This document shows positions 1,788 to 1,994 of a stretch of DNA of 4,514 nucleotides, in pieces. Origin of the DNA: a virus. Its lineage: Duplodnaviria; Heunggongvirae; Uroviricota; Caudoviricetes. The stretch lies in the IMG/VR virus record IMGVR_UViG_2667527717_000011; one strand, 5' to 3'. A model generated the notes under the pieces. That model saw only the letters and a program-made list of their open reading frames with translations. It ran no database searches and was not told where the DNA came from. Within the stretch, counting starts at the first letter, position 1; each line of letters opens with the position of its first letter. Both the position numbers and the translations under genes were made by a program.

Positions 1788-1813
1788 AATAAAAAAGCCA
1801 GCATGTAGCTGGC
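1788..1813 (-). terminator. Rho-independent terminator (tR'-like) downstream of the Q gene
   Basis: On the minus-strand transcript: GCCAGC-UACAU-GCUGGC followed by UUUUUUAUU. About 185-205 nt downstream of the Q stop, comparable to the lambda PR'-to-tR' distance. Confidence 0.6.
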
Positions 1814-1890
1814 AACAGAGGGTTAAGCAATATCAACTCAACAGCTGAAGACACCCTGGCTGGGGTACGTTGGAAGGATACTCACCGCCC

Positions 1891-1925
1891 AGAAACAGAA
1901 AAGCCCAAGGCTTTAAACCTCGGGC
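1891..1925 (-). terminator. Second terminator-like hairpin between Q and holin
   Basis: Minus-strand transcript GCCCGAGG-UUUAAAG-CCUUGGGC (one G-U pair) followed by UUUUCUGUUUCU. Works only in the minus orientation. Confidence 0.4.
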
Positions 1926-1994
1926 TTGAATTTGGATTACTGCCAGTGCGTACAACATTGGCAAAATATCAGATTTACATAAAATATATGATTT

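Follow-up and report, generated by a model that had tools for sequence, protein, structure and literature searches.

The late genes of lambdoid phages are controlled by a cassette that comprises a Q gene, the late promoter PR', a sigma-dependent pause element, a terminator, and the late genes (PMC9388147). The pause element of phage 82 pR' consists of a -10-like sequence with an extended -10 TG, GCC at +15 to +17, and an AT-rich stretch, with the pause at +25 (U)/+26 (PMC5001585); the Q-binding element of 82PR' lies within -31 to +30 (PMC4914094), and the Q82 family of Q proteins is PF06323 (PMC9388147). Short PR' RNAs are documented for lambda, 21, phi80, 82, and P22, and StxS demonstrates that such RNAs can be functional small RNAs (sRNAs) (PMC7547250). 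IsrJ is an sRNA of ~74 nucleotides (nt) from Gifsy-1 that ends at a rho-independent terminator (PMC4825925) and is expressed in lysogens (bioRxiv 10.1101/787010). Here we compare with these systems the gap between the Q gene and the holin gene in a 4,514-nt stretch of DNA from a virus of the Caudoviricetes (IMG/VR record IMGVR_UViG_2667527717_000011), which at its full length we call the window. We consider it very likely that this gap is a phage 82-type lambdoid late-gene control cassette, read on the minus strand. Its elements and their positions, conservation, and covariation were established by sequence, structure, and comparison, whereas for pausing, Q loading, and antitermination we extrapolate from published work on phage 82 and lambda.

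A Q gene of family PF06323 lies immediately upstream of the gap, a sigma70 promoter overlaps its 3' end, and an intrinsic terminator precedes the late genes, which is the arrangement of a Q82 cassette; the phage 82 late region likewise has a Q of the same Pfam family directly upstream and a promoter overlapping the 3' end of Q. The window Q matches 217 of the 220 positions of the PF06323 profile. It shares 86% identity with the Q of phage 434, which the annotators of that phage label Q82-like, and 70% identity over residues 1-216 with AntQ of Gifsy-1, in which the C-terminus is replaced. A PDB search with the window Q returned no relatives. The gap, 309 bp long, lacks coding potential, as an initial annotation of this DNA had stated: stops occur in all three minus-strand frames, and the sole open stretches, of 43 and 35 amino acids (aa), have non-ATG starts and overlap the hairpins. 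The AT-richness that had been ascribed to 1930-1994 is also borne out (29% G+C vs 50% for the window). That annotation had further proposed a PR'-qut-tR' late control layout; we retain the overall order of Q, PR'/qut, tR', and lysis genes and revise the position of the promoter, the role of the first terminator, and the supposed rarity of the arrangement.

The -35 hexamer of the predicted PR' falls within the last codons of Q, and the promoter is partly in the Q frame, outside the interval initially considered. Transcription would be expected to start at A1976 ± 3 nt, seven bases after the -10 hexamer. We compared 104 fetched loci with Q relatives, namely 24 from other Enterobacteriaceae genera (61-75% aa identity) and 80 viral contigs. 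A 20-nt block, ATTGCAAAACTGGATTAAAA, recurs in 98 of 107 loci with no more than 4 substitutions. Within an alignment of 16 diverse copies from ~10 genera, both TTGCAAAA and the segment from +1 to +11, AAATCTGATAT, are invariant and more conserved than the -10 hexamer itself. The PR' block persists in Gifsy-1 even though it no longer codes for the C-terminus of Q there, and we therefore favor a cis-acting role over coding constraint. A text search of the literature for the promoter block sequence gave no match. We also observed a plus-strand promoter-like site at 1958-1985 (TTGGCA-16-TAAAAT, 10/12 matches), directed antisense into the 3' end of Q in a paQ-like manner. Its -35 is not conserved in relatives with the second leader variant described below, and the site may have arisen by chance from the AT-richness of the promoter region.

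With +1 set at A1976, the initial transcribed region has TG at +6/+7, TATTTT at +9 to +14 (1968-1963), and GCC at +15 to +17 (1962-1960), directly followed by the AT-rich AAUGUUG and a U at +25, which places the predicted pause at +25/+26 (T1952/A1951). As a sequence match, all four phage 82 pR' descriptors, that is, the extended -10-like element, the GCC, the AT-rich tract, and the U, fit the window simultaneously with this one start site. The phage 434 variant has GTA at +15 to +17 and does not fit them. The TGnTATTTT motif (TGATATTTT, 1971-1963) that had been read as an extended -10 candidate is indeed present and is a real extended -10-like element; it is not, however, a promoter -10 but corresponds to a transcribed sigma-dependent pause element. 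Immediately downstream, the 5' arm of the predicted stem-loop 1 of the leader RNA overlaps the discriminator of the pause element. Relatives with a second variant at this site (variant B, GUCG...CGAC, as opposed to variant A of the window) carry the stem of the Rfam isrJ model.

The two hairpins with U tracts that had been noticed on the minus strand are recovered by a terminator scan and by folding energies, and we refer to the one proximal to Q as T1 and to the distal one as T2. The T1 stem (1927-1901, 12 pairs, with the tail TTCTGTTTCT to 1891) folds at -18.4 kcal/mol (z -4.6), and the T2 stem (1813-1797, 6 pairs, tail TTTTTTATTC) at -11.9 kcal/mol (z -4.1); none of 200 shuffles was as good in either case. 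Each consists of a G+C-rich hairpin followed by a U-rich tract on the transcribed strand, as expected of an intrinsic terminator. Seven terminator-like sites were found between 1300 and 2800, compared with 1.7 ± 1.4 in shuffled sequences. The initial ranking of T1 as the weaker terminator holds for the U tract, which is near-perfect in T2 and interrupted in T1, but not for the hairpin, which is more stable in T1.

Among the 69 distinct downstream sequences compared, 61 carry a hairpin with a U tract between about +28 and +87. The hairpins at this position derive from at least three unrelated stem families (AAGCCCGAGG.., GAGCCUCGCC.., and AAACCCGC..), and compensatory changes occur at 4 of the 9 pairs of the consensus hairpin. 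The same position is an annotated or known terminator in phage 434, HK225, and Gifsy-1, and in phage 82, too, an intrinsic terminator follows within ~85 nt and precedes the lysis genes. On this sequence evidence, T1 is the real tR'. The suggestion that the proximal hairpin is instead a pause or qut structure does not agree with a position conserved across genera, with several stem sequences, and with its equivalence to the terminator of IsrJ. T1 may also resemble the phage 82 t500 terminator (GGGCUUUUCUGU), a likeness that we do not use as evidence; in the phage 82 literature, the U tract of t500 is described as interrupted by GC. A subgroup of E. coli-type viral contigs (L057, L058, L062, L079, L088, and L089) diverges right after the pause site. 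These contigs carry a reverse-orientation open reading frame (ORF) of 267 aa in place of T1 (~2225-3215 in L057), and no terminator was detected within 800 nt in them.

The transcript from PR' to T1 would be a short leader RNA related to IsrJ. The isrJ model RF01393 aligns over its full length to 1979-1900 with 30.4 bits (E 0.009). At the same post-Q position, isrJ scores 73.8 bits in Scandinavium (locus L024), 72.7 in Enterobacter (L010), and 58.9 in Pseudocitrobacter (L008). Because these copies pass the isrJ gathering score of 37 bits and the window copy is below it, we regard the window leader RNA as a divergent isrJ relative rather than a formal member. It shares with Gifsy-1 IsrJ the promoter block, the first 14 transcribed nt, and a two-hairpin layout with a rho-independent terminator; it differs in the sequences of stem-loop 1 and of the terminator stem, in its length (~83 nt vs ~74 nt), and in its place, since the Gifsy-1 module is separated from antQ. 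There, an 82-type PR'/IsrJ module together with remnants of the last Q codons is located 0.84 kb downstream of antQ, behind isrK-orf45-anrP. Such an arrangement would be explained most simply if DNA inserted at the 3' end of Q had moved the ancestral PR' module away from that gene; IsrJ would then be the PR'-tR' leader RNA of a relocated module of the Q82 cassette family. Gifsy-1 AntQ (L002, 1620-2620) is without the last ~13 residues that are common to the Q proteins of the window and of phage 434. IsrJ is not termed a PR' leader RNA in PMC4825925, the Owen et al. preprint, or PMC7547250; the StxS paper (PMC7547250) does not mention IsrJ, and the IsrK paper (PMC4825925) does not discuss a late promoter or qut. 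Like lambda 6S RNA and StxS, the leader would be a constitutive short RNA produced as a by-product of Q-controlled termination, and StxS is an Hfq-dependent regulator. Those RNAs differ from it in Q family, sequence, length (194 nt in lambda; StxS is processed to 74 nt), and pause position (+16/17).

The second terminator belongs to a recurrent arrangement. T2-shaped hairpins with compensatory stems (GCCCGC/GCGGGC, CCCGGC/GCCGGG, GCTCAC/GTGAGC, and GGCTGCC/GGCGGCC) precede the lysis-leader stem discussed below in other genera and phages, and the T2 equivalents in other genera share the tail UUUUUUAU and lie 156-506 nt past the start site. In relatives, the interval between T1 and T2 contains tRNA genes (Asn, Thr, Arg, Phe, Gly, Met, and Lys) or ORFs. 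tRNA genes lie between tR' and the lysis genes in L010, L013, L015, L016, L017, L022, and Klebsiella phage Mulock; ARAGORN found no tRNA or pseudo-tRNA in the window. The T1...T2 layout also occurs with other Q families, namely in HK225 and mEp237 (Qin-like Q), in the P22-like UPF_BP1, and in Mulock. Judged by these comparisons, tandem terminators bracketing a moron/tRNA slot are the norm for this phage group, and the initial impression that they are unusual is not sustained, since other Enterobacteriaceae genera, as well as phages with different Q families, show the T1...T2 pattern too. The spacer contains a conserved domain of ~50 nt (1862-1814) in which AGGGU (1857-1853) pairs with ACCCU (1823-1819), enclosing a UCAGC-6-GUUGA hairpin (1848-1833) whose arms covary (TCGGC/GCCGA and TCAGC/GCTGA). 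This domain also lies directly before T2 in L015, L016, L023, L112, and L114, and its immediate upstream neighbor in relatives is the final gene of the tRNA array.

Several known sRNAs, AgvB, AsxR, PasA/C/D, and STnc100, are encoded in this same interval from PR' to the holin gene. AgvB (RF02702), AsxR (RF02703), and STnc100 (RF02076) have no Rfam match in the window at E up to 1, and PasA at the E2348/69 locus has an unrelated sequence and is antisense to the late genes; the identity of the T2 module with AgvB, AsxR, or PasA/C was thus rejected by sequence, Rfam, and, for PasA, orientation. The Hfq-bound RNAs EcOnc22 (Sp15) and EcOnc33 (Sp6) of enterohemorrhagic E. coli Sakai were likewise set aside, as they lie in other regions (a tail gene and an esterase-S interval). 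Prophage PP2 of the enteropathogenic E. coli strain E2348/69 (L108, 1-4420) has a Q82-type Q in a phage 434-like arrangement, followed by a membrane protein, DUF3927, a PasD2/STnc100-like RNA, a SASA esterase, the antisense PasA, and a class II holin. What follows a given PR' module can thus differ widely.

Directly after the U tract of T2 lies a second structured element, a stem in which the 5' arm 1786-1774 pairs with the 3' arm 1742-1730. The stem encloses a conserved sequence, GCUUUGUCGUUAAAU (1759-1745), which across copies reads as a mostly unpaired GCUUUGUYGWUAAAU. The element is present in 43 phage records by BLASTN, none of which annotates an RNA or a regulatory feature there, and in at least 120 viral contigs by an exact-pattern scan; further copies are at 2593-2659 in L008, 1509-1576 in L109, 1550-1616 in L110, and 912-979 in L111. 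Some 45 nt separate its end from the start of the downstream holin, and at least seven holin sequence types are represented. Many temperate enterobacterial phages carry the element between a terminator and the ribosome-binding site of the holin gene, and in vB_EcoS-733R5 it precedes the lysis cassette with no Q gene nearby.

The evidence for the stem comes from pairing, shuffle, and fold statistics. Among 19 diverse copies, 11 pairs are 96% paired and 4 pairs show double changes; the covariation score was reached by none of 500 shuffles, and sliding of the partner columns reduced pairing to 17-53%. At least 9 outer pairs form in the folds of 86 out of 87 distinct viral copies, among which at least six compensatory arm variants occur. 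A covariance model, R1, built from 21 copies in other phages only, scores the window copy at 51 bits (E 2e-12) on the minus strand and at 11 bits on the opposite strand; R1 acts mostly as a sequence profile, MAFFT having put the stem arms out of register and RNAalifold having obtained 7 pairs, and it is not counted in the covariation evidence. Rfam has no match at the element, and BLASTN did not find the stem in lambda. Two other readings of this segment were discarded. A third hairpin, at 1780-1759, scores poorly as a terminator (z -1.95), and we assign it to the 5' portion of the long leader stem; the motif GTTGTTAAAT, inspected as an extended -10 promoter, has poor hexamers and no -35, and lacks TG in the window copy.

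Our best guess is that the stem may be a processing or stabilizing 5' structure for the lysis mRNA, because the lambda late leader carries RNase III processing sites (Daniels 1988, as cited in PMC7547250). Both those sites and the sdi structure upstream of S, like the element, are structured RNA located between tR' and the holin gene that would come into play once antitermination has occurred; the likeness is one of position and structure. With slightly more doubt than belief, we put forward that T2 and the covarying stem together (1813-1726) form an undescribed cis-acting leader RNA of the lysis cassette, which would act on the processing, stability, or translation of the lysis mRNA after Q has turned on late transcription and which travels with many unrelated holin families in temperate phages of Escherichia, Klebsiella, Citrobacter, Enterobacter, and Salmonella. 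The second terminator and the leader stem are not discussed in the phage 82 literature consulted here.

Taken as a phage 82-type cassette, the locus would work as follows. Host sigma70 polymerase would initiate constitutively at PR', with +1 near 1976, and sigma70 would rebind TGaTATTTT-GCC (+6 to +17), so that the complex pauses near +25/+26. Without Q, the polymerase would escape from the pause and terminate at T1 (tR'), releasing the IsrJ-related RNA of ~83 nt, and T2 would stop read-through as well as, in related phages, transcription from morons or tRNA genes inserted after T1; the lysis genes would therefore be silent in the lysogen. With Q present, Q would load on the paused complex, and the polymerase would read through both terminators into the stem-loop leader (1791-1726) and then transcribe the holin and lysozyme genes. 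Some points weigh against this interpretation. The start of transcription, the pause, and the two 3' ends are predicted; the phage 82 region was compared by published descriptors, and the proposed identity with its pR' rests on four textual ones; and the Q82 binding element can be placed in the window no more precisely than -31 to +30. Moreover, the U tract of T1 is interrupted (UUUUCUGUUUCU), which makes its efficiency uncertain, the leader RNA has a subthreshold isrJ score, and the prophage, lying among insertion sequence (IS) elements in a draft assembly with runs of N, may be defective, although the cassette itself looks intact.

A different assignment of the same parts, close to that of the initial annotation, would place the late promoter within 1930-1994, at TTGCCA-17-AGTAAT or at TGaTATTTT, treat the proximal hairpin as a pause or qut structure, and make T2 the real tR'. 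Both hexamer pairs do exist in this 29% G+C segment (TTGCCA at 1964-1959 and, 17 nt on, AGTAAT at 1941-1936), and T2 has the better U tract. TTGCCA and AGTAAT, however, lie inside the transcript and stem-loop 1 and are absent from the variant B relatives (Gifsy-1, Enterobacter, Citrobacter, and others), which keep everything else; TGATAT lies inside the IsrJ transcript of the Rfam model and fits the phage 82 pause element with its GCC at +15 to +17; and a canonical, conserved promoter is present just upstream. Given also the U tract at the T1 position in 61 of 69 variants and its known terminators in phage 434, HK225, and Gifsy-1, we consider this assignment highly improbable.

The role of T2 leaves more room. 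Rather than serving mainly as a back-up terminator, it could form the 3' terminus of an independent small RNA that derives from the spacer domain (1862-1788) and is released in relatives from the trailer of the tRNA array, in the manner of RNAs derived from a 3' external transcribed spacer, and in the window from T1 read-through. A covarying domain directly before T2, and directly after the last tRNA gene in relatives, would fit such an RNA, as would its structured 5' part, hairpin, and U tail, a shape typical of Hfq-binding sRNAs, and many sRNAs are known from the moron site that follows PR' (PMC4104026). On the other hand, our scan finds no promoter between T1 and T2, Rfam has no match, and the known sRNAs of the site differ in sequence and, for PasA, also in orientation. 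We regard a separate RNA as rather unlikely, and it would be compatible with the phage 82-type cassette rather than exclusive of it. It is also improbable, in our view, that the cassette is a dead relic of a defective prophage, whose promoter and terminators would no longer work as a switch and would be conserved only by recent descent. The IS200/IS66-type flanks, the N runs in the lysozyme gene, and the draft assembly would agree with decay, but all cassette elements are intact, and the region shares 98.8% identity with that of Escherichia phage PhiR47_2, whose record is a complete phage genome. Even in a defective prophage, a host-driven PR' would still yield the short RNA, as IsrJ is made in Gifsy-1 lysogens. 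We retain the phage 82-type cassette, whose features are collected in Table 1.

Table 1. Features of the Q-to-holin region of the window, with the analysis from which each was derived
Feature	Position	Strand	Basis
Q antiterminator gene, 229 aa, Q82 family	1995..2684	minus	Pfam PF06323, E 1e-96
Predicted late promoter PR': -35 TTGCAA 2011-2006, 17-nt spacer, -10 TATATT 1988-1983	1983..2011	minus	Consensus scan
Initial transcribed region with predicted sigma70-dependent pause element	1951..1976	minus	Sequence reading; published phage 82 pR' descriptors
Predicted short PR' leader RNA, ~83-86 nt, divergent IsrJ relative	1891..1979	minus	Rfam isrJ RF01393
Predicted stem-loop 1 of leader RNA, variant A GCCA...UGGC	1940..1964	minus	Minimum free energy and centroid folds
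Predicted terminator T1 (tR'): 12-bp hairpin AAGCCCGAGGUU-UAA-AGCCUUGGGCUU, then UUCUGUUUCU	1891..1927	minus	Terminator scan, folding energy
T1-T2 spacer, empty moron/tRNA slot	1814..1890	minus	Comparison with relatives
Predicted terminator T2: hairpin GCCAGC-UACAU-GCUGGC, then UUUUUUAUU	1788..1813	minus	Terminator scan, folding energy
Lysis-leader RNA element	1726..1791	minus	Covariance model, covariation
Holin (LydA type), first late gene	1368..1685	minus	Pfam PF16083, E 4e-21

The window is the nin-Q-lysis segment of a lambdoid prophage. Its minus-strand gene order is NinB (4085-3630), NinE, YbcO, RusA, YlcG, Q, the gap, the LydA-type holin, and lysozyme, with IS200- and IS66-type sequences flanking the prophage segment. 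A 1.5-kb segment is covered to at least 80% in 831 of 5,426 complete E. coli genomes, among them O157:H7 strains at 94.9% identity. The holin start, TTG at 1685, is followed by a second Met at codon 5 (LAIHMHEK; MAKHMQDK in relatives), which is a dual-start-like motif, and a small minus-strand hairpin at ~1712-1690, just upstream of the holin gene, is possibly analogous to the lambda sdi structure. Runs of N and scattered N at 939-941 and 1084-1108, inside and just downstream of the lysozyme gene, mark the window as part of a draft assembly. Toward one end, an Rfam STnc490 match (174-298, plus strand, 140 bits), which we read as an IS200 leader, is directly followed by an ORF beginning at 308 that looks like an IS200-type transposase; the element appears truncated, because this ORF ends early at 541. 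At the other end, just beyond NinB, begins an ORF (4349-4514, plus strand) that presumably resembles IS66-family orfA, and an IS may bound the prophage segment on that side.

The core finding is already known biology, a textbook regulatory cassette, and the lysis-leader stem is possibly the sole new item. The main value of the analysis is thus one of annotation, in that the promoter, the pause site, and the terminators are fixed for a module that hundreds of E. coli genomes carry, those of O157:H7 included. What deserves further attention is the link to IsrJ and the unannotated lysis-leader stem. If IsrJ-family RNAs are indeed constitutive leader RNAs of Q82-type cassettes, a reported Salmonella virulence sRNA would join the class exemplified by StxS, and similar RNAs would be predicted in many enterobacterial lysogens. 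If the leader stem tunes holin expression or the timing of lysis, it would represent a new and easily testable control point.

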